DNA of 64,000 bases, taken from the IMG/VR virus record IMGVR_UViG_3300043395_004142. The stretch is one strand, 5' to 3'. The position numbers and the translations under genes are program-made. Positions 1,977 through 62,544 of this stretch are shown here, piece after piece. The notes under the pieces are model-generated. The model was given only the letters and a program-made list of their open reading frames with translations. It was not told the DNA's origin and did no database searches. Within the stretch, counting starts at the first letter, position 1; each line of letters opens with the position of its first letter. Source of the stretch: a virus.

Positions 1977-2063
1977 TTCTCAACTCCCTGCAAATGAAGG
2001 TTGAGCGGGCCCCTTACACCAAGCTCCTTCGCCGAGGAACCAATTTGGTGTAAGAGATGGCCC

Positions 2064-19692: not shown

Positions 19693-19931
19693 GCCTTCGT
19701 ACGATCCGTGACCTTCTGGACGGTCACGACGTGGCGTGGCTCCTCCGTGAGCTGAACGGCGCCGTGGCCGACACCATCGACGCAGGGGCCCTGGAAGCCC
19801 CCCAGGCGCTTCGTACGCTGGAGACGGCCCTCCGGTCGGTACTCTCTGACCCCGAAGCGCTTGACGCACTAAAAGAGGCCCTGGAAGAGGCCCTGGAAGA
19901 GGCCCTGGAAGAGGCCCTGGAAGACGCCTAA
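19689..19931 (+). CDS. hypothetical helical protein with (EEAL)n repeat
   Basis: 80 aa. ATGA overlap. The C-terminus is encoded by a 12-nt x4 tandem repeat. Confidence 0.45.
   Translation: MSLRTIRDLLDGHDVAWLLRELNGAVADTIDAGALEAPQALRTLETALRSVLSDPEALDALKEALEEALEEALEEALEDA
19875..19922 (+). repeat. 12-nt perfect tandem repeat x4 (gaggccctggaa) inside a CDS
   Basis: Four perfect copies read directly from the sequence. They encode EALEEALEEALEEAL. Confidence 0.8.
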
Positions 19932-20181: not shown

Positions 20182-21294
20182 ATGCCTAACCTCATCGAAG
20201 GTGCGCCGGTCTACATCCAGGGATCCGGCGCCAAGCCCTACGAGCTAAAGAACGTCGGGGGCATCTACTCCTGTAGCTGCCCCGCATGGCGCAACCAATC
20301 CGAGCCGATCAACCGCCGCACGTGCAAGCACCTTCGAGCCCATTGCGGCTCTGCCTCCGAGGACGCTCGCATCGCAGGAAAGGCGGCCCCCAGCCCCGGC
20401 CCTGCCAACGACGTGGTAGCGGAAGAGCGGGTCGTGAGAGCGACCCCGGAAGAGGCGCAACGCATCTTGGACCGCGCTGCCGAGCAAGGGCGCAAGCTCA
20501 GGCAGGACGAGAAGACCAAGCTCAACGGCCCGCCGCTGCTCTTGGCGCACCAGTTCAGTGACTTCGAGATCGACCCTACGGGCTGGTGGATGTCCGAAAA
20601 GCTCGACGGGAATCGGGGCTACTGGGACGGGAAGCGGATGGTCTCCCGACAGGGCAACGTCTTCTCGGCGCCGGACTTCTTTCGGAAGGGGCTCCCTGAC
20701 GTACCGCTCGACGGCGAGCTGTGGATGGGGCGCGGCAACTTCCAGGACACGGGCATCGTCCGCGCAGACAACGCGGGCGTCGAATGGGAGAAGGTTGTCT
20801 ATCTCGTGTTCGACCTACCCTCTAGCAAAGAGCCCTTCGAGGCCCGGATGGCGGAGTTGAAGCGGATCTTCGCCAAGAACAAGCCGCAGTTCGCGCGGGT
20901 TCACGAGCACATTCGCTGCGAGGGCAACGAGCACTTGACGCGAGCCCTGATCGATGTCACTGAAGCTGGCGGCGAGGGCATGATGCTCCGCAAGCCGGGC
21001 TCTCTCTACGTCGCCCGACGGAGCGAGACCCTCCTCAAGGTCATTCGCTGGAAAGAGGAGGAAGGCGTCGTCGTCGCTCACCTCCCGGGCAAGGGGAGGC
21101 ACAAGGGGAGCCTCGGAGCCATCACACTACGGCTTCCGAACGGCATCGAGTTCGACGTGGGCACGGGCTTTTCGGACAAAGAGCGCCGCACGCCCCCTAA
21201 GATGGGCGCCCTGGTGACGTTCAAGTACGGCCACAAGACCCGTGCGGGCAAGCCCCTCAAGGCGTCGTTCGTCCGGGTACGCGACTACGAGTGA
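20182..21294 (+). CDS. ATP-dependent DNA (or RNA) ligase with N-terminal SWIM-like CxC...CxH zinc finger
   Basis: Nucleotidyltransferase motif I EKLDGNR (KxDG) and DGELW are present. The size is that of T7/Chlorella-virus minimal ligases. N-terminal CSCPAW...CKHL. Confidence 0.7.
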   Translation: MPNLIEGAPVYIQGSGAKPYELKNVGGIYSCSCPAWRNQSEPINRRTCKHLRAHCGSASEDARIAGKAAPSPGPANDVVAEERVVRATPEEAQRILDRAAEQGRKLRQDEKTKLNGPPLLLAHQFSDFEIDPTGWWMSEKLDGNRGYWDGKRMVSRQGNVFSAPDFFRKGLPDVPLDGELWMGRGNFQDTGIVRADNAGVEWEKVVYLVFDLPSSKEPFEARMAELKRIFAKNKPQFARVHEHIRCEGNEHLTRALIDVTEAGGEGMMLRKPGSLYVARRSETLLKVIRWKEEEGVVVAHLPGKGRHKGSLGAITLRLPNGIEFDVGTGFSDKERRTPPKMGALVTFKYGHKTRAGKPLKASFVRVRDYE

Positions 21295-23611: not shown

Positions 23612-23658
23612 CAGGCATTGAAGCCTTTACAACCAGGTCTTCCACCCTGGTTCAATTC

Positions 23659-23712
23659 GTATGACGCCAAAGCACGGAGAGGTCCGTATGACGCCAAAGC
23701 ACGGAGAAGTCC
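23659..23712 (+). repeat. 27-nt tandem duplication x2 (1 mismatch)
   Basis: gtatgacgccaaagcacggaga[g/a]gtcc occurs twice back to back. Each copy includes an ATG. Confidence 0.8.
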
Positions 23713-23930
23713 GCCACCACGGCCTTCGAAGGGTCGATGGGAAAGAGACAACATACGAGGACAAGCAAGGGCGACTGGTGTACCGGGGCCCTACGCTCCC
23801 CGTCGTGGAGAGCGTGACCGAAACCTACTGCACCCACTGCAAGACGTGGGTGCAAACCAACGGTATCATGGGTCCCCTCAAGTACATGGCCGAGCACCGG
23901 GACGGAGACTGCGTGAAGGCGAAGCCATGA
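23661..23930 (+). CDS. hypothetical Cys-containing protein with duplicated N-terminus
   Basis: 89 aa. MTPKHGEVR is encoded twice by a 27-nt tandem duplication. CTHC...C..C. Confidence 0.45.
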   Translation: MTPKHGEVRMTPKHGEVRHHGLRRVDGKETTYEDKQGRLVYRGPTLPVVESVTETYCTHCKTWVQTNGIMGPLKYMAEHRDGDCVKAKP

Positions 23931-24346
23931 GCAAGCACAAGCCTTACGGGATGATGACCCCGTGTGAGAACTGCCCGTTCCGTTCAGACGTGCAGCCTTA
24001 CATCCACCCGACGCGCGTTCGAGAGATCGAGCGTAGCCTCATACGGTCGGAGTTCCCCTGCCACAAGACCACGACCCATGACGAGGAGGGGGAGCAGGTC
24101 CGATCGGGCGAAGAGATGCACTGCGCGGGGGCCCTCATCCTCATGGAGAAGGAAGGACGTTCCTCGCAGATGATGCGGATTTCGGAGCGCCTCGGGATGT
24201 ACGACTCCCGCAAGCTCGACATGGGCGCCCCTGTCTACGACTCCTTCGACGCCATGTTCGAGGCTCACCGCGCGGCCGAGAGGAAGACCGTCACCAAGGC
24301 AAAGAAGGTCCAGAAGGATTCCGCCGCCACCCGGCGGCGGTCGTAG
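23927..24346 (+). CDS. hypothetical zinc-binding protein (CENCPF...CHK...HC)
   Basis: 139 aa from the ATG that overlaps the previous stop (ATGA). A partial decayed copy is at 60134..60296. Confidence 0.5.
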   Translation: MSKHKPYGMMTPCENCPFRSDVQPYIHPTRVREIERSLIRSEFPCHKTTTHDEEGEQVRSGEEMHCAGALILMEKEGRSSQMMRISERLGMYDSRKLDMGAPVYDSFDAMFEAHRAAERKTVTKAKKVQKDSAATRRRS

Positions 24347-26946: not shown

Positions 26947-27126
26947 AACACTCTTTTACACCGCGCGGGCTCTGCCCGAGGGATTAGAAAAGGTCGAGGA
27001 TTGCAGAAAGGGTTGTTACGACGGCTACAAATGTTCCTACTGCGACCACGAAGCACGAATAGAAGAGCCGAATCGACGGGGCATTGATAGGGCATTGATG
27101 GGACCGTTACGACAGAGGAAGCCTTC

Positions 27127-27753
27127 ATGGATCGCACGACCACCATTCGACTCGTCGCCGCCCGGTTCACGAACCGTGTAGCCCTAAATATTGGGGATAC
27201 CTTCGAGAATGAGAAGTGGCGGATCCACCGCTACTCCAACTCAATCGTCATCACAGACCTGGCGAACGCTGGCAAGCGGGGCAAGAAGGTTGACTCCTGG
27301 GTGGTAATGAGCCGAAGCGGGCTCAACAACGATCTACCCCTGGAGAGCATGGCGATGGAGTATATCCTCTGGGCCAAGCGGGGTGTCGACGGCGCTAAGA
27401 TGAAGGCCGTGATCGACGAAGAGCAAGAGGCTTTTGGCGATACGATGACGGTCTACATCCGACAGGAGCGTGGCGTTGACGTGATGCCAGGAGGCTTCGA
27501 GCCATTCCAGCTCAAGACGAACAAGATCTTCGTCGAGGTTACGCCTAGGGACTTCACGGTCAAGAATCTCTCCGACGTCAACAACGATCCGACGTGCATC
27601 CCTGCATCCAAAGGCGGGCTGAAGAGCATACCGACCTTTTACGCATGGGTCAAGGACAACGAGGCCAAGCTGAAGGGCATGGACTATGGACAAGTGCTGT
27701 CGGTTATGGATAACCTCGGGGTCAAGTACCACGACTTTTGCGCGATGGATTGA
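27127..27753 (+). CDS. hypothetical protein
   Basis: 208 aa. Confidence 0.5.
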   Translation: MDRTTTIRLVAARFTNRVALNIGDTFENEKWRIHRYSNSIVITDLANAGKRGKKVDSWVVMSRSGLNNDLPLESMAMEYILWAKRGVDGAKMKAVIDEEQEAFGDTMTVYIRQERGVDVMPGGFEPFQLKTNKIFVEVTPRDFTVKNLSDVNNDPTCIPASKGGLKSIPTFYAWVKDNEAKLKGMDYGQVLSVMDNLGVKYHDFCAMD

Positions 27754-27756
27754 CCG

Positions 27757-28557
27757 ATGAGTAACCTGATACGTCGAGTTTTCGAACGCTTCCTCCAGGC
27801 TGGGGCCGTGATGCCCTTCAAGCCCAAAGCTGGGGTGCCCACCATCCCCATCGCGGGCCGCAAGTACGTCCTTTCCACCGACGGGGGACCTCTTGGGGAT
27901 CGCGAGTACGACCCTCCACCGGGTATCGAACGAGGGGAGGGGGGTGCTCGGGTCATCACAGGGCCGCAGGGTACGAAGTGGAAATACCTCTGGGCCTACG
28001 ACATCGACAAGCAATTCTTGGCGATGTGGCGTGTTTCGGATGGTAATGAGAAAATGGGGGGATCGGCCAGGAATGAGCAAGGAAGGATCGTCCGACTCGA
28101 AAAGAAGGGTCAGCTCAACCGGGTGACGCACGAAGAATTCCGCCAGGTGGAGGCGGAGATGCGTCAACGAGAAGCCGATACGATCCGGGAGTTGCAAAAA
28201 GTCGTCGAAGAGAGCAAAGATGACGCGATCCAGGCTGTAGACAAGTATACGCGAGAGTTCTTCTCGAAGAACGTTGAGTCCAAGCTCCAGCGCGCGCTTG
28301 CGGACATCGACCGCGGCGTTGTTCCGATCGGGTTCAAGCCCTTTGGCCCTGGGGAGGATGATCCCGCGTGGAAGCGTCGCCAGATGTTCTCCCACGTGCT
28401 CAGAAAAGTCTTCGAGCGAGAGATGCCACTTGCAAAGGTCGAAGGCTACCTCACGTCCAAAGGTGTGAACGTAGAAGAGGCAGGCCAGTGGGTCGAATGG
28501 GCGATTGGTGACGTGCGTGACGCCGCTATCGAAAAGTACCTGCCCCCACGGCCCTAG
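27757..28557 (+). CDS. hypothetical protein
   Basis: 266 aa. Followed by a GC hairpin. Confidence 0.5.
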   Translation: MSNLIRRVFERFLQAGAVMPFKPKAGVPTIPIAGRKYVLSTDGGPLGDREYDPPPGIERGEGGARVITGPQGTKWKYLWAYDIDKQFLAMWRVSDGNEKMGGSARNEQGRIVRLEKKGQLNRVTHEEFRQVEAEMRQREADTIRELQKVVEESKDDAIQAVDKYTREFFSKNVESKLQRALADIDRGVVPIGFKPFGPGEDDPAWKRRQMFSHVLRKVFEREMPLAKVEGYLTSKGVNVEEAGQWVEWAIGDVRDAAIEKYLPPRP

Positions 28558-28573
28558 CCATCCCCTTGGGAAG

Positions 28574-28604
28574 GCAGAGGGGCGGCCTTTAGCCGCCCCT
28601 CTGC
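28574..28604 (+). terminator. intrinsic-terminator-like GC hairpin
   Basis: gcagaggggcggc-cttta-gccgcccctctgc has a 13-bp stem. A T6 run lies about 20 nt downstream. Sits 17 nt after the stop of 27757..28557. Confidence 0.5.
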
Positions 28605-28767
28605 GTCGTGCTCGCGGAGTTTTTTGAACGTCGCGACAACCTTTGGGATGCCGTTAATGGGATGAACGAGGTCATCCCAGTTGAGTTGCTTCAGCAGCTC
28701 GAACGCGAAGTATTCGTCCCATGAGTGCATGAGACGATACTACACTAACGCGCATACCCGGACACTA

Positions 28768-28974
28768 TCACGCGGCGAAGTGAGCCTCAATCCCTTCGCG
28801 GATGGCGTCAACCGTACCCGCGTCCCACTTGTATAGACGCGCGTCCATTTGAAGGTTCGCAAGCGCGTCGGCCTGCGACATGCCGTTGAGGGTCGAGAGG
28901 AAGTTCGCAACCGCGATACGACGGACACCCTTGCGCGCGACCAACTGTTCGATCTTTTCCGCGGTGATAGCCAT
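28768..28974 (-). CDS. hypothetical helical protein
   Basis: 68 aa. Confidence 0.4.
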   Translation of the reverse strand: MAITAEKIEQLVARKGVRRIAVANFLSTLNGMSQADALANLQMDARLYKWDAGTVDAIREGIEAHFAA

Positions 28975-28977
28975 GGC

Positions 28978-29151
28978 TCATACCCTCCGAGCAAGATCTA
29001 CGAACAGAGACGCGTGAGGATCCCAAACAATCTTAGGGTCCTGATGTAATACATAAACACCTTGGATCGCATCTTCTACCGCCTCGTGCCACTTCCTTAG
29101 AAGAAGGCTCGACTGAAACGCGGTATCACACATGACCTCGAAAAAGGTCAT
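28978..29151 (-). CDS. hypothetical protein
   Basis: 57 aa from the ATG (ORF track uses GTG at 29160). Confidence 0.35.
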   Translation of the reverse strand: MTFFEVMCDTAFQSSLLLRKWHEAVEDAIQGVYVLHQDPKIVWDPHASLFVDLARRV

Positions 29152-29218
29152 GCCGGCCACAGCCTACACGGCGAGAGGCCCTCTAACAGTCTCGCCTGTA
29201 ACAGGTCGGCGAATCCCC

Positions 29219-29244
29219 TCAAAAGGATTTACCGAGCAAAGCCC
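29219..29244 (+). promoter_or_regulatory. conserved intergenic motif copy (tcaaaaggatttaccgagcaaagccc)
   Basis: 25 of 26 nt identical to the copy at 62019. About 50 nt upstream of ORF 29293. Confidence 0.45.
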
Positions 29245-34916: not shown

Positions 34917-35540
34917 TCACCCGGCCGCTGACGCCTTCTTCTCCCGCCCCCTGCGCTTATAGATACCCTTTACAATGTCCAGGTAAGGATCGAGCATGTA
35001 GAAGTTTGACCAATCACAGATAGGGATAACCAGGTGATCTCCCCATCCGGCTGAATCGATCGCGTCCCAGATCCGTCCTCTCTGGTCCCACTGCCTCTGG
35101 CTGATGTGCGATGGTCGGTCCGTATTGTTCCAATAGGCATAGTCCTCAAGACGCTTGTCTCGTTTGAGAAAATCCAGCGCCTTACACATCAAAGAGTCGC
35201 AGTGAGGTATAACGTAGAGGCGGTCAGCGTGCTCGCGAATAGCCACGCACACATCAAAGTTGAAGGTGTCGCGTTCAAGCTTGCCGAGCTGAGCGCGATA
35301 CATCTCACGTATAGCGTTTCCAACTATGCGTAACCGGGCTATTTCTTCGTCACCGTTATAGACGGCCAAGGTCTTCTGATATGCCTCGGACTTGGTATCA
35401 ACCCCGTCCAGCATAGTCTTATACAACTTGACCAACTCCTTCTTGACGTTCTCCTCACCCCTCCGCCGGGTATCTCGAACGAAAGGCCATAAGTGGCGAG
35501 AGTCCTTGAGCCGGTAAGCGACATAGATCTTTGTGGACAT
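34917..35540 (-). CDS. hypothetical protein
   Basis: 207 aa, non-biased. Confidence 0.5.
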   Translation of the reverse strand: MSTKIYVAYRLKDSRHLWPFVRDTRRRGEENVKKELVKLYKTMLDGVDTKSEAYQKTLAVYNGDEEIARLRIVGNAIREMYRAQLGKLERDTFNFDVCVAIREHADRLYVIPHCDSLMCKALDFLKRDKRLEDYAYWNNTDRPSHISQRQWDQRGRIWDAIDSAGWGDHLVIPICDWSNFYMLDPYLDIVKGIYKRRGREKKASAAG

Positions 35541-35637
35541 AAAGGCTCATTACACCGAGCCGCTGATTCTGCCCGAAAAGTCCTTTAGTGTGCCCGTTTG
35601 TCGGGCAGTCGGTGTATTTGGAGGGCAGCGAGATCCC

Positions 35638-37077
35638 ATGAAGCGTTCGCGGAAACTCTACGTCCACGAGGAAGTCAACGAGGGGAAGATATCCTCTCTC
35701 GACGATCTCCACGTCGAATACCGTCGCTACCTCCAAGCCTGCATCGATGCGATGCTCGCCGCTCATCGAACCATCATCTCTCGCAAGGATCTCCTCGACT
35801 TCTTCCCACCCGAGTCCGTCCTCTCCACCAACATCGTCGCGGCCTGCCAACAGCACGCCGTCGCGATCGTCTCCGGGTGGGCTATCTCTCGCTATACGAA
35901 TCACGTCAAGAAGGCGATCCAACGATTCGCTCGTGAGGACGTCATCGACGAACCCACGAAGATCCAGCTCTTCACAATCGGAAAGTACAACCTCGACAAG
36001 CCCACCAAGACCATCTCCCAAGAGGCGCTCGACCTCTATTGGACGCTTTTGCTCGACGCCGGGAAGGCCCCGACGGTTTCAAGTCGTGTTGGGATCCGAA
36101 CCTCGATCCATACGAGCGATCTCCGACTCAACGAAGACACCTCACTGACTCCCTGGTGGCTGGGGTTCTCCGGCCTCGCAAAAGGCAAGAGAACGTGGCT
36201 TCCTCTCAAAGCCAATCCGTTCGTGAAGTCACCCAAAGATGTCACGAAGGGATGTCTCCTCAAACGAGATCGAAAGGGGAGATGGCGCGTCGAGGTCGTC
36301 GAGACGAAAGAGTACGAAGTCCCCGATCCGCTTCCCGACGCGCCTCGTCTCGGGATGGATGTTGGCCTCAACGTCATCGCTGCGACGAGTGACGGGCGAC
36401 TCTTCGGAGAAGCGGTCAAATCCAAGTTTGACGTTCTCTACGGGAAGATGCGATCGACGCGAGCGAACCGACAGAGACAGGGATTGAAAGAGAACTCGGC
36501 GAGGTTGGATAGCCTCGAAGACCGTTTGAGCGGGTTCATCAAGACCGTCACGGGAACGATCGCGAACGATCTGATCAAGAGTCACCCTGCACATGTCTTC
36601 GTCCTAGAGGATCTCGATCTTCGGGGGTGTCGCGGGCAGAAGAGGTTCGCCTATCGAGCGCTTCATCGTGCGTTGAGTATGAGGACACTCACGATCGCGA
36701 TAAACGCGGCGTACACGAGTCAGATGTGCCCTTCTTGTGGGTACGTCTCGCGAGGGAACCGAACTGGAGTCAGGTTTATCTGCCGCAGTTGTGGCAGGAA
36801 AAGTCATGCGGATGTGGTGGGAGGGATCAACGTGCTCGGACGTTCCGAGGACACACACGTTGGTCTCGACGATCATCCTTCCGAAGTGAAGGCTTTGTTA
36901 AGAGAGCGATACCGCGCACGTAGGCGGGACAGTTCCTCAAGAGAGCCCGAAGTAACCGCGCTGCTAGCTTGCAGCCGAAGGCTTACTACGCGGGGATCTC
37001 CCTCGGGAGACACGCGCACAGCCTTGAACGCCTATGGTATTTCTCGGGCAGTCCCACCTCTTGGCGGGCACCCGTGA
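35638..37077 (+). CDS. tnpB: TnpB-like RuvC nuclease (IS200/IS605 OrfB, IS1341-type)
   Basis: RuvC-I GMDVGLN, RuvC-II VFVLEDLDL, zinc finger AYTSQMCPSCG...CRSCG, and RuvC-III HADVVGGINVL are present. GGAGGG sits upstream of ATG 35638. Confidence 0.8.
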   Translation: MKRSRKLYVHEEVNEGKISSLDDLHVEYRRYLQACIDAMLAAHRTIISRKDLLDFFPPESVLSTNIVAACQQHAVAIVSGWAISRYTNHVKKAIQRFAREDVIDEPTKIQLFTIGKYNLDKPTKTISQEALDLYWTLLLDAGKAPTVSSRVGIRTSIHTSDLRLNEDTSLTPWWLGFSGLAKGKRTWLPLKANPFVKSPKDVTKGCLLKRDRKGRWRVEVVETKEYEVPDPLPDAPRLGMDVGLNVIAATSDGRLFGEAVKSKFDVLYGKMRSTRANRQRQGLKENSARLDSLEDRLSGFIKTVTGTIANDLIKSHPAHVFVLEDLDLRGCRGQKRFAYRALHRALSMRTLTIAINAAYTSQMCPSCGYVSRGNRTGVRFICRSCGRKSHADVVGGINVLGRSEDTHVGLDDHPSEVKALLRERYRARRRDSSSREPEVTALLACSRRLTTRGSPSGDTRTALNAYGISRAVPPLGGHP

Positions 37078-37290
37078 CTTGCCGGGCAAAGCCCGAGCCG
37101 CTGGCTATCGGAGTCGATCCGTCTCTTGTCTAGTACCTTGAGTAAGTAGAGGGGGCTTCAGAAAGCCTAACGGCCCTAACGTTGAGCTTAGGGACGGAGA
37201 GCGATTGAATGCCGCGACAGGGGCCTTCCTTCGCACCTTACATTGACTGGCGCAACACCCCCGCCAACCCTAGCGGGGGGTTTGCTTTGG
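37078..37290 (+). ncRNA. candidate TnpB-associated omega-RNA/right-end region ending in a hairpin terminator
   Basis: ~210-nt non-coding tract directly 3' of tnpB. Hairpin cgggc-aaa-gcccg at 37083..37095. Terminator-like ccccgc-caacccta-gcgggg followed by gggtttgctttggttc near 37254..37290. Confidence 0.3.
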
Positions 37291-37315
37291 TTCAGTCGGA
37301 AGCGCCTGGGCACCC

Positions 37316-38338
37316 CTAACAGCTTGCCATCTTAGACTCGCGCTTCTTCGCGATGATCTCCGCGGCGTTACTGAAATCCGCCGGGTACTTCCACTTCTTC
37401 CAGTCCGGGAAGCCTGCGTCGGCGTCGAAGCCGCTGAGTACCGTCAACACTTCATCAACACTCTTCTTGATCTGGTCCCCGTACCGCTGAAGTTCGTTGA
37501 GCCGTAGCTCGCCGAAATCCTCGTCGAATTGCGTGATGATGCTGTGGCAACGGCTGTAGATGTCGTCCCAAGCCAGGGGCACTTCCTCACTCGTCACGAT
37601 GAGAGACATGAGCTTACCCGACTCGGTGCGAAGCGCCTTGAAATCGGAGACAAACTTCGTGGTCTCCGAATAGAGGGTAAAGATCGCGTCGAATGTGACA
37701 TCTTCGGACGCTCCGAGCCCAACGAGGCCGGCGCTGACGTAGGCGTGCTTTCGCTTCAAGGCGGTGAACTTGCTCCCCATGCGAAGTGCCTTACTGGAAA
37801 GGCTATGCACGAGGTCAAAGGCCGTTTTCCAATCCTTGTGCGCTTTCTCAGGAGCCTCCGTGTCCTGGATAAGGTCCAAGGCATCGGCAAGGTCATCCGT
37901 CAGGAACTCCTTGAGTTCCCGCTTCCACTTAGGGTTGATCTCTACCGAGGAGAGAGCCCTGTGGAAGGCGTCTAGAACCTTGTTGGACTCGACCTTGATG
38001 GTTGCAAGGCCACGTTGAATCTTCCGCTCGGCTTCCTGCCGAGCCTTAGCTACGGGATCCTCTTCCTCGTAGCGCTTGGTGAGGTCTCGCGTGCGTTTAC
38101 CGTCGAGTATCTCTTTGGCAACGTTTAGCTCGACCATCTTCCGAGGGTCACCACCGCGGTCTGGGTGGAACTGAATCGCTCGGTTCTTGTACGCCTTGGC
38201 TATCTCACCGGGGGATGGAGAGTAGTCTGGAGGGAACCCCAGGACTTCCTTTGCGTCGTCCATGTTCATGGACATGAACAAACGGGTGTGAAGCGCGGCA
38301 GTGCGACGATCGTAGTCCATCAGGTTGAACCTCTTCAC
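37316..38338 (-). CDS. J-domain (DnaJ-like) protein
   Basis: KAYKNRAIQFHPDRGGDPRKMVELNVAKEIL contains the canonical HPD motif. The rest of the protein has no recognisable family. Confidence 0.65.
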   Translation of the reverse strand: MKRFNLMDYDRRTAALHTRLFMSMNMDDAKEVLGFPPDYSPSPGEIAKAYKNRAIQFHPDRGGDPRKMVELNVAKEILDGKRTRDLTKRYEEEDPVAKARQEAERKIQRGLATIKVESNKVLDAFHRALSSVEINPKWKRELKEFLTDDLADALDLIQDTEAPEKAHKDWKTAFDLVHSLSSKALRMGSKFTALKRKHAYVSAGLVGLGASEDVTFDAIFTLYSETTKFVSDFKALRTESGKLMSLIVTSEEVPLAWDDIYSRCHSIITQFDEDFGELRLNELQRYGDQIKKSVDEVLTVLSGFDADAGFPDWKKWKYPADFSNAAEIIAKKRESKMASC

Positions 38339-38537
38339 TGGAGGTCCGATAAAAAAAGATTGCGCCCCCTACATGAGTCGAATGTGCGGCCAACGGACTA
38401 AAATCACGCATGGGCTTTGCCCGACAGTACGTTTAGCACCCCCACTTACTGGGCATACGTGACTTCCAGACAAAGCCCAAAATGGTAACAGCCCCTGCTC
38501 TACCCACTAGGGTCGGCAGGGGCTTGCTTAGGTTCGG

Positions 38538-39932: not shown

Positions 39933-41951
39933 GTGCCCATCTCCACACCCCTTAGGATGGCACGGTACGCCGAGACTTATGCGACCTATGTAGGCATGAG
40001 CACAGCTTTTCGTGTCGCGCACCGGTATCTGGCCGCCGCAAAGTATGACCACATTGACTTCAAACCACCGAAAAGCGTTGCCGAAACAGCGGCAAAAGGC
40101 TTGGAGTACCGCAAGAAGCAGACTGACAAAGCCGGTCTAACCCCCTCGGAAGCCTCGAAAGAGGGCATTGGTTCTGGGGTGCAACGGGCGGTGAATCTGA
40201 AAAACCGGGACAATGTGAGCCCCGAAGTTATCCGTCAAATGAGTGCCTTCTTTGCAAGGCACGAAAAGAACAAGAGCATCTCCCCCGAGCATCGCAATGA
40301 GCCGTGGAAAGACAAAGGCTACGTGGCTTGGTGCCTTAAGGGGGATACGGACGTTCTCTTGGCCGATGGAACTTGGCTACCTATCTCCAAGATCGTTGAG
40401 GACAAGCTGAGTGTGAGGGTCTGGTCCTACAATGAGGCGACCAAGACCTTTGAACCGAAAAAAGTGGTCGGATGGAGTGTTGCCCCCGCAAGCCTTGAGG
40501 ACTTCTACATCGTCGGGAAGCACAAGACAATGCGGCAAGGTATCAGTGATCGCACTTTTCTGGCCGCTACCGCCGAACACCCATTTTACGTAGAGGGGGA
40601 ATGGGTTGAGGCTAAGGACATGAAAGGGCGTGTTCTTAGCATCGTAGATCGGGGCCTGGACCCGATCTCGGAACAAGTCCTTCTCGGTACCCTTCTTGGA
40701 GATGCTTACATTTGGAAGTCTAGTGACAGTGCGGGCACGCTTCGCATGGCCCACGGGTCTGACCAACGAGAATACCTGCATGAAAAAACTCGCCTACTAC
40801 ACCCGTTAGTCTGTAGTCAGTTTGACACTCCTAACGAGAGTGGTTTTGGGCGAATGGGATTGGTAAAGTGCTGCACTTATACGGCAAGCACGCTCTACCT
40901 AAGTTACATCCGTGATCGTTTCTACGACGAGGAGGGTGTCAAGAGAGTTACCCCCACACTATTGAGGTCACTTGAAGACGTTGGAGTAGCCTTTTGGCTC
41001 ATGGATGATGGGAAACTCAAATTCTCGGAGAGAGACGGCCACTCCTCATGGATTCTGCATACCGAAGGGTTCGATGAAGAAAGTGTCGAAAACATCGTAC
41101 AATTTCTGAGGGGCCGTTATGAAATAGATGCTCGCGCCCAAAGGCGGGAGAACACGGACGGATCCACCGTATACTTTACCGTAGAAGGTACTCGGAAGAT
41201 GATGGCTCGGCTAGCACCCTTCTTCCACCCCTCTATGCGCTACAAGCTACTACCCGAATACCATGACGTTCCTTACGTATTAGCGGATCATTCCCCAAAA
41301 AGCGAGTTGGTGCTGTGTCCCCAACCTGTGACTCGGTTTGGGAAAGCTACGGATGAATACACAAGCAAGGCCGCTCGGAAGCCGTATAAATGGGAGTGGC
41401 GGTATAACCTTGAAGTGGAAGGCAACCACAACTTCATCGCCAATGGGGTGCTGGTTCACAACTGCCTTTGGGGCGGAGACCCTGGCAAAGCCTGGGCGGA
41501 CAAGATCAAAAAGCAGATGGAGGCCGCCGACCAAAAGACCGCGTCCCTTGGTGCAGGGGCCCTCACCCATGAATTGATGAACGATCTGGCTTCCGCCTAC
41601 CGGGGCAAGCGTATGCGCGATGCTATCCGTGACATGGAGCTTGCCGAGGTGCCCCAGGTAATGGCCGAAGAAGTCTACCGCAAGGTAGGGCAACACGCCG
41701 ATGAGGTTCGCGGTAACCTCCACCGTCTTCTCTCAGGCGTGCGAGTCGAATTCGAAGGAGGAGACCGGCCTGGCTGGGTCTGCTCCGACGAAACCGGCAC
41801 CATCTTCGTCCCGGCAGACGGAAGCCCTCCTCCACACGGAGGCTCGATCGCTCTTCGATCTGTAGCGGGCGCTATGCACGAATGGTGCAAAACCGATGTC
41901 CTGAGATATGGTGGTGCGAATCTCACAAAGATGATGAAGTCCACGGAGTAA
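39933..41951 (+). CDS. hypothetical protein interrupted by a LAGLIDADG intein
   Basis: Exteins total about 295 aa (res 1-133 and 511-672). Predicted spliced junction: ...KDKGYVAW|CLWGGDPGKAWADKI. Confidence 0.6.
   Translation: MPISTPLRMARYAETYATYVGMSTAFRVAHRYLAAAKYDHIDFKPPKSVAETAAKGLEYRKKQTDKAGLTPSEASKEGIGSGVQRAVNLKNRDNVSPEVIRQMSAFFARHEKNKSISPEHRNEPWKDKGYVAWCLKGDTDVLLADGTWLPISKIVEDKLSVRVWSYNEATKTFEPKKVVGWSVAPASLEDFYIVGKHKTMRQGISDRTFLAATAEHPFYVEGEWVEAKDMKGRVLSIVDRGLDPISEQVLLGTLLGDAYIWKSSDSAGTLRMAHGSDQREYLHEKTRLLHPLVCSQFDTPNESGFGRMGLVKCCTYTASTLYLSYIRDRFYDEEGVKRVTPTLLRSLEDVGVAFWLMDDGKLKFSERDGHSSWILHTEGFDEESVENIVQFLRGRYEIDARAQRRENTDGSTVYFTVEGTRKMMARLAPFFHPSMRYKLLPEYHDVPYVLADHSPKSELVLCPQPVTRFGKATDEYTSKAARKPYKWEWRYNLEVEGNHNFIANGVLVHNCLWGGDPGKAWADKIKKQMEAADQKTASLGAGALTHELMNDLASAYRGKRMRDAIRDMELAEVPQVMAEEVYRKVGQHADEVRGNLHRLLSGVRVEFEGGDRPGWVCSDETGTIFVPADGSPPPHGGSIALRSVAGAMHEWCKTDVLRYGGANLTKMMKSTE
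40332..41462 (+). mobile_element. intein (377 aa) with LAGLIDADG homing-endonuclease domain
   Basis: Block A CLKGDTDVLLADGTWLPISKIV. LAGLIDADG-like LLGTLLGDAYI and AFWLMDDGKL. C-terminal EVEGNHNFIANGVLVHN followed by +1 Cys. Confidence 0.8.
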
Positions 41952-43415: not shown

Positions 43416-44075
43416 ATGACGACCGAAACGACTGAAACGACCGCAACGGAGGCCCCGAAGAAGACGACTACGAAGAAGGCGACTTCCAAGAAGGCGACTT
43501 CCAAGAGGCGAGCGAAAGCGGCCCCCATCAATAAGGCTGCCTTCGTCCGAAAGTTCGACGAGGAGGTGCCTGCGAAGAAGATCGTCGAAGCCGCTGCAAA
43601 GAAAGGTGTCGAGATTACCGACACCTACGTGTACGCAGTGCGAGCGTACATGCGGGCCAAATCCAAGAAGGTTTCAGCCAAGAAGGTCTCGACCAAGAAT
43701 GCTTCGGCCAAAAAGGTCTCGACCAAGAATGCTTCGAGGGCCCGCGGGCCGCGGGGCCCTCGTGCTGGATCGAAGAGGGCCTTCGTCCTCGGGCTTCCCA
43801 AGGATATGTCCGCAAAGGATGTCATCGAGACCGCCGCGACGAAGGGGATCCAGTTGACAGCCGCATACGTCTACGCGATCCGGTCGGCTGCGAAGGGCCA
43901 GTCCGGTCCCAAGGCCCCCGCAGCGGCTCCTCCGGCCCCAACTTCCGACATCACCCTCAGCGGCAACGCTGCGGCTCGGGAACTGGCCAAACGAGCGGTT
44001 GCCCAGTTTGGGGGATTCGAAGGAGCCGCGGAGATCCTCTCGGAAGCCCAGGCGATGATCGCCCCTTTCGTCTAG
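43416..44075 (+). CDS. Lys/Ala-rich histone-H1-like DNA-binding protein with two internal repeats
   Basis: KKATSKKATSKRRAKAA and KKVSTKNAS x2 low-complexity basic tracts. A ~45-aa duplicated domain: AFVRKF...ITDTYVYAVRAY and AFVLGL...LTAAYVYAIRSA. Confidence 0.55.
   Translation: MTTETTETTATEAPKKTTTKKATSKKATSKRRAKAAPINKAAFVRKFDEEVPAKKIVEAAAKKGVEITDTYVYAVRAYMRAKSKKVSAKKVSTKNASAKKVSTKNASRARGPRGPRAGSKRAFVLGLPKDMSAKDVIETAATKGIQLTAAYVYAIRSAAKGQSGPKAPAAAPPAPTSDITLSGNAAARELAKRAVAQFGGFEGAAEILSEAQAMIAPFV
43666..43740 (+). repeat. 30-nt tandem repeat x2.5 inside a CDS
   Basis: agaaggtctcgaccaagaatgcttcggcca is repeated with minor changes. It encodes KKVSTKNASA. Confidence 0.75.
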
Positions 44076-45098: not shown

Positions 45099-45377
45099 TG
45101 TAGAAAACACCTGCCATCGGCCCGATCTCGGGCCGCGATGACGAAGAGTTGGCTCACCCATCGAGGAGATAGTCTCGGACGTGGTTGCGAGCCCCCGCGC
45201 GAGGCACACGACGATCCTTCATACGCCCGCTCTTATGGCGCTTTTGCATAGCGACCACAAGTCCAGAACGGGGCGTTAGCAGAGGAATTTTAATCGTAAT
45301 CTTCATGACGAGCCTATCGCAGAGTATAGTACGAACGCGAGGTCTGTCGATCCCCTTCAGGCAAATCCCCAGCCTCG

Positions 45378-49173: not shown

Positions 49174-49384
49174 ACTCGAAGAGTTGGCCGTCAATTTCGG
49201 GGAGCAGTTGATCGCGACCATTCTCACCTGCCCCATCAGCGAGTTAGACGACGGAAGACCTACACCTAGGCTACCCACAGCTCGCAAGAGAGCCGCCAAG
49301 GCACTTCCCCCCAAGAGAGCCGCCAAGGCACTTCCCCCCCAGCGGAACATAAACATGCTCCCACCCCCCTCCAAATTACGCTGA
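49157..49384 (+). CDS. hypothetical protein with KRAAKALPP x2
   Basis: 75 aa. Contains a perfect 27-nt tandem duplication. Confidence 0.4.
   Translation: MNLRDRLEELAVNFGEQLIATILTCPISELDDGRPTPRLPTARKRAAKALPPKRAAKALPPQRNINMLPPPSKLR
49286..49339 (+). repeat. perfect 27-nt tandem duplication x2
   Basis: aagagagccgccaaggcacttcccccc occurs twice with no mismatch. Confidence 0.85.
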
Positions 49385-50162: not shown

Positions 50163-51086
50163 ATGGCTATCCTTCGGCACCTCATCTCAATCAACGACCT
50201 GACACCCGATGAAATCAAAAGTCTCTTCTTCCACGCGAACCTACTCCGAGGGTGCGAGCACCTCTGGGACCCCTTACAAAAGAAGCCCCTAGCCGGCAAG
50301 ATCCTCGCCTGCCTCTTCTACGAGCCCTCGACACGAACGAGCAGCTCGTTCATCGCCGCTATGGCACGCCTTGGAGGCACGGTCATCCCCATTACGCAGG
50401 GCGTCCAGTTCTCTTCTGTGTCGAAGGGCGAGACCCTGGAGGATACGATCCGCACCCTCGGACAATACGCCGACGCCATCGTCCTCCGGCACCCCGTAGA
50501 AGGATCCGCGAAGTCCGCTGCTGCGGTCTCCCCTGTTCCCGTGATCAACGCGGGCGACGGAGCCGGAGAGCACCCAACGCAGGCCCTCTTAGACCTCTTC
50601 ACGATGCGTGACGTGAAGCATGACCTCGAAGGAAAGACTATCGCCCTCGTCGGGGACCTCCTCTACGGGCGGACCATTCACTCCCTCGTGCGCCTCCTCC
50701 CACGAGAAGGCGCCAAGCTCATCCTCGTGAGCCCACCCGAACTACAACTCCCCATCGAGCTACGAAGCTTCGTACCTGCGGACACCGTAGAGGTCCATAG
50801 CCTCGGTGACGCCATCGAGCACGCGGACATCGTATACATGACCCGGGTCCAGAAAGAGCGCTTCCCCTCTCTGGAAGCCTACGAGCATGTAAAAGACGCC
50901 TGTGTACTCACGCGCGCCCTTATGCAGAGGGCCAAGCCCGATGCGGCCATCATGCATCCATTACCACGCGTAAATGAGATCGAACGCGAGATCGATGACG
51001 ACCCTCGCGCCGTCTACTTCACACAGGTCAGGAACGGCATGTTCGTTCGTATGGCCATCCTCCAAAGACTCATCCAACAACAATAA
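50163..51086 (+). CDS. pyrB: aspartate carbamoyltransferase catalytic subunit
   Basis: EPSTRTSSSF (STRT motif), GEHPTQALLD (HPTQ) and MHPLPR (HPLP) are present. 307 aa. GAGGGG SD upstream. No pyrI follows. Confidence 0.85.
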   Translation: MAILRHLISINDLTPDEIKSLFFHANLLRGCEHLWDPLQKKPLAGKILACLFYEPSTRTSSSFIAAMARLGGTVIPITQGVQFSSVSKGETLEDTIRTLGQYADAIVLRHPVEGSAKSAAAVSPVPVINAGDGAGEHPTQALLDLFTMRDVKHDLEGKTIALVGDLLYGRTIHSLVRLLPREGAKLILVSPPELQLPIELRSFVPADTVEVHSLGDAIEHADIVYMTRVQKERFPSLEAYEHVKDACVLTRALMQRAKPDAAIMHPLPRVNEIEREIDDDPRAVYFTQVRNGMFVRMAILQRLIQQQ

Positions 51087-56658: not shown

Positions 56659-56889
56659 GGAACACGTCCCGCAAAAAGGCTATCGACCGACACTGACCGA
56701 TGTTAACGCCAGGGGTGATCTTCGGGAGCGGACCCCGTCATTGATCGGGGTCCCACGGCCACCCTCACGGTCAGCTTTATCGACGTCGAACCATTGCATA
56801 CCTGCCTCTACACCGTGACAGGAACTCGATCCCAAAAACATCTCTCTCGGTTGGGATCGTGGGTCGGATTCGTCGTAGGGATCCTCAAG

Positions 56890-61270: not shown

Positions 61271-61987
61271 TCATGGTTTGGGGGGTAGCGCCTTCGACTT
61301 CTTGCCCGGTAGACCACGTGCGTTCGCTTTCATGTTGGCTTCCGCTTCCGCGATGCGTGCCTTACGACGCGCTTCGATGGCATCCTGAGTGCCCTGAGAA
61401 AGAACCTTGTGGGCGCGGTTGAAGGCGATACTGATTGTCTCGTCGCACACTCGGCCTGGGACCGGCTTCTTGGGATCCAAGGTCGGGTTGGAGATGTCGA
61501 AGAGGCTGTCCGAGAGCCGAACGACCCCGCCCCCCGTAACCGGGAAGAGGAGGGTTAGACCGATGACACGCTCTTCATACGTCATACGATCGCTGCGGAA
61601 GGCACTGCGAACCGTGACCTTATACCCGCTCGTCGAAAGGGCCACGAGTTCGAGCCCGGAGACCCCTTGAGCATTGAACATGAGGTCGAAAGGGAGCCAA
61701 TAGTCCAGGGCCTCAAAGCCGGACTCCCCTTCAATGGGATACGATTGAAGAGGTTCTAGTTGATGGTTCTGAGGTTCTCCGTTCTGTAGGTCTGCAACGA
61801 AGGAAAACAGCACACCCCCATCTGAGACCCCGCCACGTCGAAGGGTCTGGATACGGAAGTGCTCGGGGGCATCCGCGGGGTTGAGAACAGGTCGTGGGGC
61901 CGAGGCTTGAAGAAGCATAGGCGCTGTACTACACTTTCTGCGTGGCTTTGCCTGACAAATAGATTGATCCTTTGTTTGACCCGACAT
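61271..61987 (-). CDS. hypothetical protein
   Basis: 238 aa, non-biased. Confidence 0.5.
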   Translation of the reverse strand: MSGQTKDQSICQAKPRRKCSTAPMLLQASAPRPVLNPADAPEHFRIQTLRRGGVSDGGVLFSFVADLQNGEPQNHQLEPLQSYPIEGESGFEALDYWLPFDLMFNAQGVSGLELVALSTSGYKVTVRSAFRSDRMTYEERVIGLTLLFPVTGGGVVRLSDSLFDISNPTLDPKKPVPGRVCDETISIAFNRAHKVLSQGTQDAIEARRKARIAEAEANMKANARGLPGKKSKALPPKP

Positions 61988-62018
61988 AGAAGCGGATCTC
62001 TCAGGTGCTTAGGCACTT

Positions 62019-62043
62019 TCAAAAGGATTTACCGGGCAAAGCC
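62019..62043 (+). promoter_or_regulatory. conserved intergenic motif copy (tcaaaaggatttaccgggcaaagcc)
   Basis: Near-identical to the copy at 29219. Overlaps the last codons and stop of minus ORF 62029..62370. Confidence 0.4.
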
Positions 62044-62370
62044 TTTCTGCTTCTCCGATAGCAAGACCCCACAACCCTTGTTCAGGCAGAAAAGCTCAAT
62101 CGTATCAGGCCAATCTACGCGGAGAATACGCCGTACCATCATGCGGCAGTGGGGGCACTTCCGACCAATCTTGGACTCTACCTCCCTCGCCGTAGAGCCC
62201 TGGTACAACCTTCGAAAAAGGCGCACCCACTCAAAAGGTTCGATGAGCGTGTCATCGCCCATGCACGTCAGGTAAGAGTGATGTGCCTCAACTGGGCTTT
62301 GCCTAGAAAGTCCCTTGTGAGGACGTTCTAGGCTTCGGCCAGACTTCATCAACGTCATAGGTCTCTCCAC
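62029..62370 (-). CDS. hypothetical zinc-ribbon protein
   Basis: 113 aa with CPHC...CLNKGC. Confidence 0.45.
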   Translation of the reverse strand: MERPMTLMKSGRSLERPHKGLSRQSPVEAHHSYLTCMGDDTLIEPFEWVRLFRRLYQGSTAREVESKIGRKCPHCRMMVRRILRVDWPDTIELFCLNKGCGVLLSEKQKGFAR

Positions 62371-62544
62371 GAGATCTACTCCTCAGAAGCCATGATACCC
62401 CGCATCCAGCCGAACGGCACTGGCCGTTTTTACAGCTCTTTTAGAGCCCAGCTTCTTCCGCTTTGACTCCTAGATCCCTCAAAGGGGATCAACAATCCCC
62501 CTCAACTGCAACCGTAGAAGCTTTCCTAAAAGAGGGGTTTGCCC

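Follow-up and report, generated by a model that had tools for sequence, protein, structure and literature searches.

The window, a 64,000-nt stretch of viral DNA (IMG/VR record IMGVR_UViG_3300043395_004142), contains a tnpB gene bordered by short repeats and overlapped at its 3' end by a predicted structured RNA (Table 1). The ATG of the gene coincides with the conserved MKxSR start of its homologues in a 33-sequence family alignment. In the same alignment the RuvC residues D241, E324, and D392 are invariant, as are the four cysteines of the C4 zinc finger (C364/C367/C382/C385; CxxC..CxxC), located between RuvC-II and RuvC-III in the TNB domain. The TNB domain was also detected by Pfam (PF07282; 1.5e-11, 44.7 bits vs a cut-off of 26.3), with the NCBIfam guided_TnpB model scoring 93.5 bits, slightly below its cut-off of 100, and PF01385 scoring 17.8 bits vs a cut-off of 30.5. 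An AF2 model of the protein (pLDDT 82.8) was matched by Foldseek to AsCas12f (1e-14), ISFba1 TnpB (5e-11), and ISDra2 TnpB (7e-11), with the whole set of matches, Fanzor2 included, ranging from 1e-14 to 9e-9 over ~430-490 alignment columns. The WED-REC-RuvC-TNB fold is present across the full length of the model, and a PDB sequence search with the TNB / RuvC-III region gave CasPhi-3 as the best match. Judged by these alignments and by the predicted structure, the ORF is an intact TnpB with a Cas12f/TnpB fold. An earlier, sequence-only reading of the locus had proposed an intact TnpB with all RuvC blocks and the zinc finger retained, and both points were borne out.

Table 1. Features of the tnpB locus and of related copies in the window (positions are those of the window)
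Feature	Position	Strand	Description
TACAC motif, predicted TAM / target-site motif	35551..35555	+	directly 5' of the left duplicate
TSD, left copy	35556..35564	+	9 bp, CGAGCCGCT; identical to 37094-37102
Left TIR	35565..35583	+	GATTCTGCCCGAAAAGTCC; family consensus GGCTTTGCCCGrnAAGTC; reverse complement of the right end
Left end / 5' UTR	35565..35637	+	homology to L002 throughout
tnpB, intact	35638..37077	+	479 aa; open frame
Omega-RNA (reRNA) scaffold	36952..37093	+	covariance model, fold
Right TIR	37075..37093	+	TGACTTGCCGGGCAAAGCC; doubles as scaffold 3' end; reverse complement of the left-end consensus
TSD, right copy	37094..37102	+	9 bp, CGAGCCGCT; identical to the left copy
Predicted omega-RNA guide	37094..37113	+	right duplicate and first flank bases; analogy with TnpB systems
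Downstream non-coding tract	37104..37315	.	ordinary flank outside the element; not conserved in relatives
Mini-element	38413..38477	+	65 bp, GGCTTTGCCCGACAG...CGTGACTTCCAGACAAAGCC; flanks degenerate
MITE-like copy	61930..62052	+	100 bp (61944-62043), same TIRs; TACAC 61930-34; duplicates TTTCTGCGT / TTTCTGCTT
Possible MITE	62286..62508	+	205 bp (62295-62499); perfect 9-bp duplicate CCTCAACTG, weak right repeat, TACAC absent
TSD words of relatives			L002 CGTCCTGGT; L169 CACGACGCC; L170 CGCCGATGC; L251 CACCGCCGG; each perfect at both ends

PHROG matches among the window ORFs place the gene in a phage context. Relatives occur on IMG/VR contigs 137-618 kb long and the family is present in huge phages, while a survey of 185,579 species genomes returned only five close matches, all on MAG contigs and four of these shorter than 10 kb. 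A megablast of the 30-45 kb segment against phage records gave no match. No tRNA was found in the window, nor any CRISPR array-like tandem repeats. As the sequence-only reading had stated, the gene stands alone with no tnpA adjacent: of the two neighbouring ORFs, one (207 aa) has no family match and the other (340 aa) matches DnaJ only weakly. No transposase was found among 32 window ORFs scanned with Pfam and/or PHROGs, and a serine-recombinase tnpA is absent from the window and from all 11 loci of its subclade. Relatives at 45-57% identity carry a MerR-HTH + Resolvase TnpA directly upstream, overlapping the tnpB start.

The ends of a 1,529-bp element (35565-37093) could be placed by comparison with related loci. 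An 11-nt direct repeat, ccgagccgctg, occurs at 35555-35565 and 37093-37103; the repeat noticed earlier is thus real and its first copy correctly placed, with the second copy at 37093 and not 37099. Its core is the 9-bp duplication. The repeat does not reach significance on the window sequence by itself (four matches with ≤1 mismatch vs 2.6 expected); only the relatives make it significant. Directly inside the two duplicates lie inverted repeats with an 11-bp consensus, GGCTTTGCCCG on the left and CGGGCAAAGCC on the right. This core is perfect in L002, the closest relative (84% amino acid identity, different neighbour genes), and extended identity read from the sequences reaches 16-17 of about 20 positions in L002, L251, and L253; the left TIR of the window element itself has three mismatches to the consensus. 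Homology to L002 spans the left TIR to CGGGCAAAGCC, broken only by the 9-mer, with TACAC just outside, and homology to L002, L169, L170, L251, and L253 ends exactly at the right TIR. A further repeat, TTTGTCGGGCAGTC, is subterminal (35597-35610, recurring at 37040-37053), and its two copies co-vary between the window (GCAGTC) and L002 (GCAGCC). Paired tgcccg hairpins had also been described upstream of the gene. A left-end hairpin does exist in the window (TGCCCG at 35587-92, CGGGCA at 35598-603), but it is not conserved as a hairpin. The first TGCCCG belongs to the TIR, and the second is missing in L002.

Five different 9-mer words, each a perfect 9/9 duplicate, border the elements in the window, L002, L169, L170, and L251 (5/11 subclade loci). 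Those in the four relatives surround homologous elements lying between unrelated neighbours, which upholds the earlier suggestion that the repeats mark element ends. Among all TIR-like pairs examined the flank matches were bimodal, mostly 0-5, with a match of 9 in four pairs and of 8 in one more. In six more distant subclade members (L253, L255, L256, L172, L174, and L179) the 9-mers are mismatched and TACAC is mostly kept, a pattern that fits recombination between copies and would also fit TACAC as a part of the element. At the level of sequence, these comparisons show an element with TIRs of 11-19 bp, a 9-bp TSD, and one intact tnpB.

TACAC is found in 10/11 TnpB loci of the subclade. It lies exactly 9 nt before the left TIR in the window, L002, L169, L170, L251, L253, L255, the MITE-like copy, and at 45368(-), and with less exact spacing in L172, L174, and L179; the base preceding it is not conserved. 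The comparison of related TnpB loci thus defined the left and right ends, and it yielded TACAC as a predicted TAM or target-site motif.

Within the window the TIR motif occurs 51 times vs 25.5 ± 4.8 in shuffles, about a twofold excess reached in 0/100 shuffles. The duplicates of the 100-bp MITE-like copy match at 8/9 positions. In the 65-bp mini-element, the right end resembles that of the tnpB element, stop-codon region included. We regard the 205-bp MITE as tentative because a random 9-mer match within 3.2 kb, with about 10 ends tested, has roughly a 10% chance. Two ORFs lie inside an end-like pair at 26968-29243, and neither is a transposase.

The position of the guide RNA differed from that expected initially, when an omega-RNA scaffold was placed in the ~210-nt tract downstream of the gene. 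We used a covariance model (R1) built from 64 relatives with the window subclade left out; in the family structure 21/23 pairs are compensatory, and 93.7% is paired vs 72% in shuffles. On the window the model matched 36952-37038 (57.6 bits, E = 1.8e-12), and a single-sequence fold of the scaffold reproduced P1 and P2 (z = -2.1). The full scaffold takes in the final ~125 nt of the ORF and extends 16 nt past the stop codon. Its 5' two-thirds are common to more distant relatives, and its 3' module (37039-37093) is subclade-specific. The C-terminal 46 residues of TnpB (434-479), predicted to be disordered in the AF2 model, are encoded exactly at the scaffold position. Covariation and folding together show that a structured RNA of the family's omega-RNA type, as recognised by the model, overlaps the tnpB 3' end and ends at the right TIR. 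The covariance-model search proposed earlier thus did detect a structured RNA, within the ORF 3' end and not in the tract. Rfam, searched at the gathering threshold over the whole window and at E ≤ 10 over 35400-37400, gave no omega-RNA, RAGATH-18, or other match.

The tract itself is non-coding, as had been noted, with no ORF of at least 50 aa between 37134 and 37315, and a terminator scan recovered the terminator-like hairpin (37258-37279, followed by GTTTGCTTTG). Apart from the first ~20 nt, the would-be guide, it reads as ordinary flank: it has neither a covariance-model nor an Rfam match, its fold is not unusually structured overall (z = -0.85), and it is not conserved in L002, L169, L170, or L251; in L002 another gene starts 39 nt past the tnpB stop codon. 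For annotation, this argues for looking for the omega-RNA within the ORF 3' end rather than in the subsequent intergenic tract. In TnpB systems the guide is the ~16 nt past the right end (PMC13565253), and by analogy we infer that here it would be the ~20 nt directly after 37093.

We consider it probable that 35565-37093 is a non-autonomous TnpB element of the TIR/TSD type residing in a phage genome, mobilized by a transposase in trans, using TACAC as its TAM, and maintained by homing. A transposase acting in trans would make 9-bp staggered cuts and insert the element. TnpB would bind the omega-RNA, whose guide would comprise the right duplicate and flank (37094 to about 37113), and TACAC directly 5' of the left duplicate would be the TAM. 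With the guide after the right end and TACAC as the TAM, the unoccupied allele (TACAC + CGAGCCGCT + GGCTATCGG...) would be a perfect target; the reconstructed empty site of the window would read ...CTCATTACAC-CGAGCCGCT-GGCTATCGG... The occupied allele would be spared, its left junction matching over 9 nt only and its right junction having no TAM. Empty alleles, for instance those of a co-infecting phage or those left by precise excision, would be cleaved, and recombinational repair would then copy the element back (restorative or canonical homing). A homing role of TnpB and a link between TAM and target preference have been described (PMC13565253). The empty site was not recovered: the neighbour proteins are without relatives in IMG/VR, and tblastx with the flanks of L002, L169, L170, L251, and L253 found no syntenic unoccupied locus in the DNA examined. 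The same protein is encoded on a second contig (L003), which agrees with the window at 99.99% identity and has no polymorphism. An IMG/VR pattern scan for the subclade right end returned one match, unrelated.

The accepted role of TnpB, restoring the transposon after scarless excision, was worked out in IS605 and IS607, elements that create no duplication. In the present case a TnpB/omega-RNA module of serine-recombinase lineage would ride in a phage TIR/TSD element with MITE-like satellites, and the order TAM / duplicate / element / duplicate / flank would still give a guide matching the empty site. The homing logic would thereby transfer to cut-and-paste elements in viruses of prokaryotes, much as has been proposed for the Fanzors of eukaryotes. 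The predictions are testable: a compact 479-aa nuclease, a scaffold at 36952-37093, and a candidate TAM, TACAC, that is neither G-rich nor T-rich.

Since the guide would start with the right duplicate and TACAC precedes the left one, each insertion would also create, at the left end, a pseudo-target made up of a TAM and a 9-nt seed. The 9-bp duplication might then be functionally exploited and the RNA-guided nuclease mechanistically coupled to the cut-and-paste transposase, in either of two variants, although we hold such coupling to be unlikely. In one, TnpB-omega-RNA would dock at the left end without cutting, for autoregulation or for marking the end for the transposase; in the other, TAM-bound TnpB would steer the in-trans transposase to insert directly after TACAC.

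Alternatively, TACAC and the left 9-mer could be parts of the element, not a scar, forming a functional pseudo-target (TAM plus 9-nt seed match to its own guide) where TnpB-omega-RNA docks without cutting and represses its own promoter or couples to transposition. A precedent exists in TldR, nuclease-dead TnpB relatives that bind partial matches (PMC10705468); TACAC is conserved in more loci than the 9-mer match (10/11 vs 5/11), and in L171 and L252, which are without the left repeat, it directly adjoins the conserved left-end sequence. However, five different perfect 9-mers adjoining both TIRs are explained only by duplication at insertion; the TSD is therefore needed anyway, with any regulatory use coming on top of it. 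The same layout without a tnpB is seen in the MITE, and the left end has no promoter-like site. We therefore rate this reading, too, as doubtful.

Less plausible still is a decayed IS607 element that has lost its serine recombinase, the inverted repeats and duplicates being secondary coincidences. The more distant members with a MerR-HTH + Resolvase TnpA overlapping the tnpB start, which have the 5' two-thirds of the scaffold in common with the window, speak for such a descent. Canonical relatives, however, end in ...GGAACGGT (...ACGGT) and follow G-rich flanks (GGGT), and in the GGAACGGT-type relatives we found no inverted repeats and, by a longest-common-substring test, no matching left and right words. 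In the window subclade the 3' RNA module has been replaced, the 5' motif is another one, and the elements have TIR/TSD ends. We give slightly less credence to a fixed, domesticated phage nuclease, with the GGCTTTGCCCG motifs on either side serving as regulatory hairpins of the phage (promoter/terminator) and not as ends. The motif does recur in intergenic regions of the window, GGC-TTT-GCC itself forms a small hairpin, and no transposase was found among the window ORFs scanned; against this, homologous elements lie between unrelated neighbours in four relatives, the perfect 9-bp duplicates differ by locus, and the 100-bp copy has its own duplicate. The label first given to the locus, a solo TnpB of IS200/IS605 (IS1341-type) with scaffold and guide in the 210-nt tract and repeats as peel-and-paste ends, accounts for the missing tnpA and for the non-coding tract with its hairpin, but is now highly improbable given the covariance match inside the ORF and none in a tract that is missing in relatives and not unusually structured, the TIRs and 9-bp TSD where IS200/IS605 has neither (PMC13565253, PMC3119063), and transposase-bearing relatives that carry IS607-type serine recombinases, not Y1 TnpA.

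Three further origins of the duplicate or of target choice were set aside. The att-core of a site-specific integrase was rejected in view of the variation of the 9-mer from copy to copy. A duplication made by TnpB's own staggered cut was likewise rejected: ISDra2 TnpB cleaves at a distance of 15-21 bp from the TAM, and the duplicate lies right beside it. An IS110-like element-encoded target specifier is unlikely, the TIR/TSD architecture being the simpler account of the data.

Several known systems come close to the element as read here, a TIR/TSD-type element carrying tnpB. With IS607 tnpB/omega-RNA elements (ISFba1 TnpB-reRNA, PDB 8iaz) it shares the protein family, a fold matching ISFba1 TnpB, and a scaffold that overlaps the tnpB 3' end with its 5' two-thirds in common. 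Inverted repeats and target duplications are both missing from IS607 elements, which end in GG (PMC13565253, PMC6188088), whereas the window element lacks tnpA and has TIRs and a 9-bp duplication; its 5' motif is TACAC and not G-rich, its 3' RNA module is replaced, and it has no RAGATH-18 match. The IS1341 group of IS200/IS605 and PATEs resemble it in the solo tnpB, the miniature non-coding derivatives in the same genome, and a short conserved motif directly 5' of the left end. IS605-type elements use subterminal hairpins and have no inverted repeats or target duplications (PMC3119063, PMC13565253); here, in contrast, there are an 11-19-bp TIR and a 9-bp TSD, and L002 does not share the upstream hairpin. 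Cas12f and Cas12j (CasPhi) of huge phages are similar in the whole-length Cas12f fold and in the occurrence of the family in huge phages, but the window has no CRISPR array, the protein is 479 aa long, and the guide is predicted to be a single flank-derived segment.

Unusually for a TnpB element, the ends appear to be those of TIR/TSD (DDE-type) IS, with terminal inverted repeats and a fixed-length TSD that differs between insertions (five perfect, one 8/9). DDE-transposase-associated TnpB branches with inverted terminal repeats have been noted, as have solo TnpBs within such ends (Altae-Tran et al. 2023, PMC10691335), and Fanzors occur in TIR/TSD transposons where the TSD adjoins the TAM and the scaffold (PMC13565253). 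Common to these and the window element is a TnpB-family nuclease with a guide RNA inside symmetrical inverted ends. In contrast to these, no DDE transposase is linked in the window or any of the 11 subclade loci examined, the protein belongs to a serine-recombinase-linked clade, and the host is a bacteriophage. The TSD here is long (9 bp) and variable, and so would make up the 5' portion of the guide, not a part of the TAM or the scaffold.

The tnpB gene is intact and encodes a predicted TnpB-family nuclease, as a sequence-only reading had proposed: its frame is open, and RuvC residues D241, E324 and D392 together with the four zinc-finger cysteines are invariant in an alignment of 33 homologous sequences (50-84% identity). 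The ATG start matches the conserved MKxSR N-terminus of the homologues; the start of a longer GTG-initiated ORF from 35533 does not match it. Pfam identified a Cas12f1-like TNB domain (1.5e-11) and, only below threshold, OrfB_IS605, and NCBIfam guided_TnpB scored 93.5 bits, below its cut-off of 100. Apart from residues 434-479, an AlphaFold model generated from the same alignment was confident (pLDDT 82.8); across nearly its full length it resembled AsCas12f (1e-14), the TnpBs of ISFba1 (IS607-type, 5e-11) and ISDra2 (7e-11), and Fanzor2. By sequence, the solved structure nearest to the RuvC-III/zinc-finger segment was CasPhi-3 (7odf), which outranked TnpB and Cas12f entries, and a closer evolutionary tie between this family and Cas12j is possible because both are borne by huge phages.

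The 11-mer ccgagccgctg has exactly two occurrences, 35555-35565 and 37093-37103. The direct repeat reported earlier is therefore real and its first copy correctly placed, the second lying six bases away from the position given (37099). Judged from the window alone, it is not significant (4 matches versus 2.6 expected with one mismatch allowed). The nearest related locus (L002, 84% amino acid identity) has neighbours unrelated to those of the window, with 39 nt between the tnpB stop codon and the next gene start. DNA homology between the two begins just ahead of the left repeat and stops at ...CGGGCAAAGCC, and the next nine bases beyond both edges are equal within each locus and different between them (window CGAGCCGCT, L002 CGTCCTGGT). 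Three more loci showed the same pattern (L169 CACGACGCC, L170 CGCCGATGC, L251 CACCGCCGG), so that the suspicion that the repeats mark the element ends now has behind it five loci with 9-mers matching at both ends and a different word at each. The stretch just inside the left 9-mer (consensus GGCTTTGCCCG, reaching ~19 bp) and the one just inside the right 9-mer are reverse complements. Inverted sequences within locus-specific 9-mers show, at the level of sequence comparison, an architecture of terminal inverted repeats (TIRs) and a 9-bp target-site duplication (TSD); the 11-mer consists of this 9-bp duplicate extended by one chance match on either side.

When every inverted pair of the TIR motif in the window and related loci was scanned, flank matches were bimodal: most pairs scored 0-5, whereas four reached 9/9 and a fifth 8/9. 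The window's own pair was missed because its left repeat carries three mismatches. The element was found at different loci in different phages. With up to two mismatches, the motif is twice as frequent in the window as in shuffles, and miniature derivatives were shown to exist (see the table); MITE-like and solo copies of the ends are spread over intergenic regions. A subterminal direct repeat of 12-16 nt, one copy per end, changes in step at the two ends of an element (the window has GCAGTC, L002 has GCAGCC and the related locus L253 has GCGATCACTCG; also seen in L251) and may be a protein-binding site or a mark of concerted evolution of the ends. Directly 5' of the left neighbour's start codon lies a hairpin, GGCTC-GGTGTAAT-GAGCC; since it is built partly from the left duplicate and the adjoining TACAC, the 5' UTR of that gene may have been changed by the insertion.

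Positions of the element, its derivatives and accompanying features in the window
Feature	Position	Strand	Remarks
tnpB ORF	35638..37077	+	open, 479 aa
RuvC-III / zinc-finger segment	36634-36843		residues 333-402; best sequence match CasPhi-3
tnpB element	35565-37093	+	1,529 bp, TIR to TIR
Subterminal repeat	35597-35610; 37040-37053
Hairpin at left neighbour	35544-35561	-
Terminator-like hairpin	37258-37279		downstream tract
MITE-like copy	61944-62043		100 bp; the 8/9 flank match
Mini-element	38413-38477		65 bp
Tentative MITE	62295-62499		perfect duplicate, without TACAC
Solo ends	26968; 60163	+
Solo ends	29243; 45368; 50138	-
Weak covariance-model match	61640-61767	+	13.7 bits, E = 0.17
Intein-type ORF	39933-41951	+	Hint/intein-splicing and LAGLIDADG domains
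SNF2-family helicase	56794-60129	+	split by homing-endonuclease insert (Hom_end / LAGLIDADG_3)
Pyrimidine-biosynthesis-like genes	2001-3068; 3065-4111; 50163-51086
Tandem repeat	43419-43737		inside ORF 43416-44075
Tandem repeat	19873-19928		just upstream of 20182-21294
Tandem repeat	23658-23713		ORF 23618-24346
Tandem repeat	49285-49339		near 50163

Family members share DNA-level conservation of the final ~100-130 nt of the ORF plus a few dozen bases past it. From an alignment of 64 canonical members (the family outside the window's TIR/TSD-type subclade, which was deliberately left out), RNAalifold predicted five helices totalling 23 pairs, of which 21 show compensatory changes; 93.7% of cells were paired versus 71.8% in shuffles and 24-51% with partners slid, and the covariation score was 0.64 versus 0.24. 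The resulting covariance model gave a single significant match in the window, 36952-37038 (+) (57.6 bits, E = 1.8e-12), and matched every subclade locus at the homologous position. A single-sequence fold of the window RNA gave helices P1-P3 (z = -2.1). The disordered TnpB tail is encoded exactly by this stretch, which suggests that the sequence for residues 434-479 is constrained as RNA. Subclade members have, in place of the canonical 3' module (helix 5 and GGAACGGT), a short hairpin and ...CAGGCAAAGCC, the right inverted repeat. A structured RNA was thus predicted, although at the ORF 3' end and not in the downstream tract where it had been expected: 37104-37300 matched neither the covariance model nor Rfam, and the tract is unconserved in relatives and unexceptional in structure. 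With the match inside the ORF and nothing in the tract, the predicted omega-RNA scaffold spans 36952-37093; the guide would be at ~37094-37113, and the rest of the tract is flank. The tract itself is non-coding with a terminator-like stem, as described earlier: there is no ORF of at least 50 aa from 37134 to the end of the convergent gene at 37316, and the hairpin may terminate read-through transcripts or that gene. The weak second match, ~180 nt upstream of the MITE-like copy, is probably chance.

TACAC stands directly 5' of the left duplicate and in that position only. Its spacing is exact in the window, L002, L169, L170, L251, L253, L255, the MITE and the end at 45368(-), and less so in L172, L174 and L179; the preceding base is not conserved. 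Being outside the duplicate, TACAC is most simply read as target DNA, which would reflect an insertion preference. Alternatively, it may belong to the element: six more divergent subclade members mostly keep it (one as TAACAC) though their 9-mers match at just 2-5/9, and in L171 and L252, which have no left repeat, it directly adjoins conserved left-end sequence. The tentative MITE at 62295-62499 has a perfect duplicate but lacks TACAC. Mismatched flanks beside an intact TACAC can be explained by recombination between copies. A search for the unoccupied site, through neighbour proteins in IMG/VR and the flanks of related loci, found none. In TnpB systems the TAM occupies the position that TACAC has here, which makes TACAC a candidate TAM. 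A guide starting with the right duplicate would make an empty site of TACAC, 9-mer and flank a perfect protospacer; that the left TACAC and 9-mer form a self pseudo-target is speculative. We propose that a transposase acting in trans would make 9-bp staggered cuts, that TACAC would serve as the TAM and the right duplicate plus flank as the guide, and that TnpB would cleave unoccupied alleles, with recombinational repair then copying the element in. Such copying would be plausible in co-infection, as for other phage homing endonucleases, and the predictions are directly testable.

The window looks like phage DNA: besides PHROG families whose function is unknown, it carries a DNA ligase and genes for pyrimidine synthesis, and neither a tRNA nor a CRISPR-like array was found in it. 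The pyrimidine-like set comprises a dihydroorotate dehydrogenase, a dihydroorotase-like amidohydrolase and an aspartate/ornithine carbamoyltransferase, and L251 also has a DHO-dehydrogenase, there adjoining its tnpB element. Several sorts of selfish elements are present, including two intein-containing genes, and in-frame-looking tandem repeats (period 9-30 nt) lie within or beside ORFs. The protein family is large (at least 483 clusters); the contigs that carry it in IMG/VR measure 137-618 kb, and a genome often has several copies. A search of 185,579 species-representative genomes turned up just five close relatives, each on a MAG contig and four on contigs below 10 kb.

Several distant members (45-57% identity) have a MerR-HTH and Resolvase ORF overlapping the tnpB start, which is the IS607 arrangement; they end in ...ACGGT, follow G-rich left flanks and show neither inverted repeats nor duplicates. 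The canonical loci L023 (1083-3437), L028 (1101-3438) and L091 are three-gene IS607-like elements, with a conserved small ORF (MKRTxIVRVT...) upstream of tnpA (MerR-HTH and Resolvase) and tnpB, and left flanks reading AAGGG(G)T. In the tnpA-less loci L025, L032 and L041, the left end opens, just past a GGGTAC boundary and ~80 nt upstream of tnpB, with a sigma-70 promoter close to consensus (TTGACA-17-TAAAAT). Canonical relatives carry G-rich left flanks in place of TACAC, and such flanks have been reported for IS607 (PMC13565253). No transposase was identified among the 32 window ORFs scanned. Both IS607 and IS200/IS605 are described as having neither TIRs nor TSDs (PMC13565253, PMC6188088, PMC3119063), in contrast to the TIRs and 9-bp TSD of the window element. 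TnpBs within inverted terminal repeats are known from six DDE-transposase-linked branches, solo copies included (PMC10691335), and eukaryotic Fanzors also occur within TIR/TSD transposons (PMC3627910, PMC13565253). As TnpBs and Fanzors within TIR-ended elements are already known, what is new is the combination: a serine-recombinase-lineage TnpB with its predicted omega-RNA, in a non-autonomous TIR/9-bp-TSD element with MITE satellites, in a bacteriophage host.
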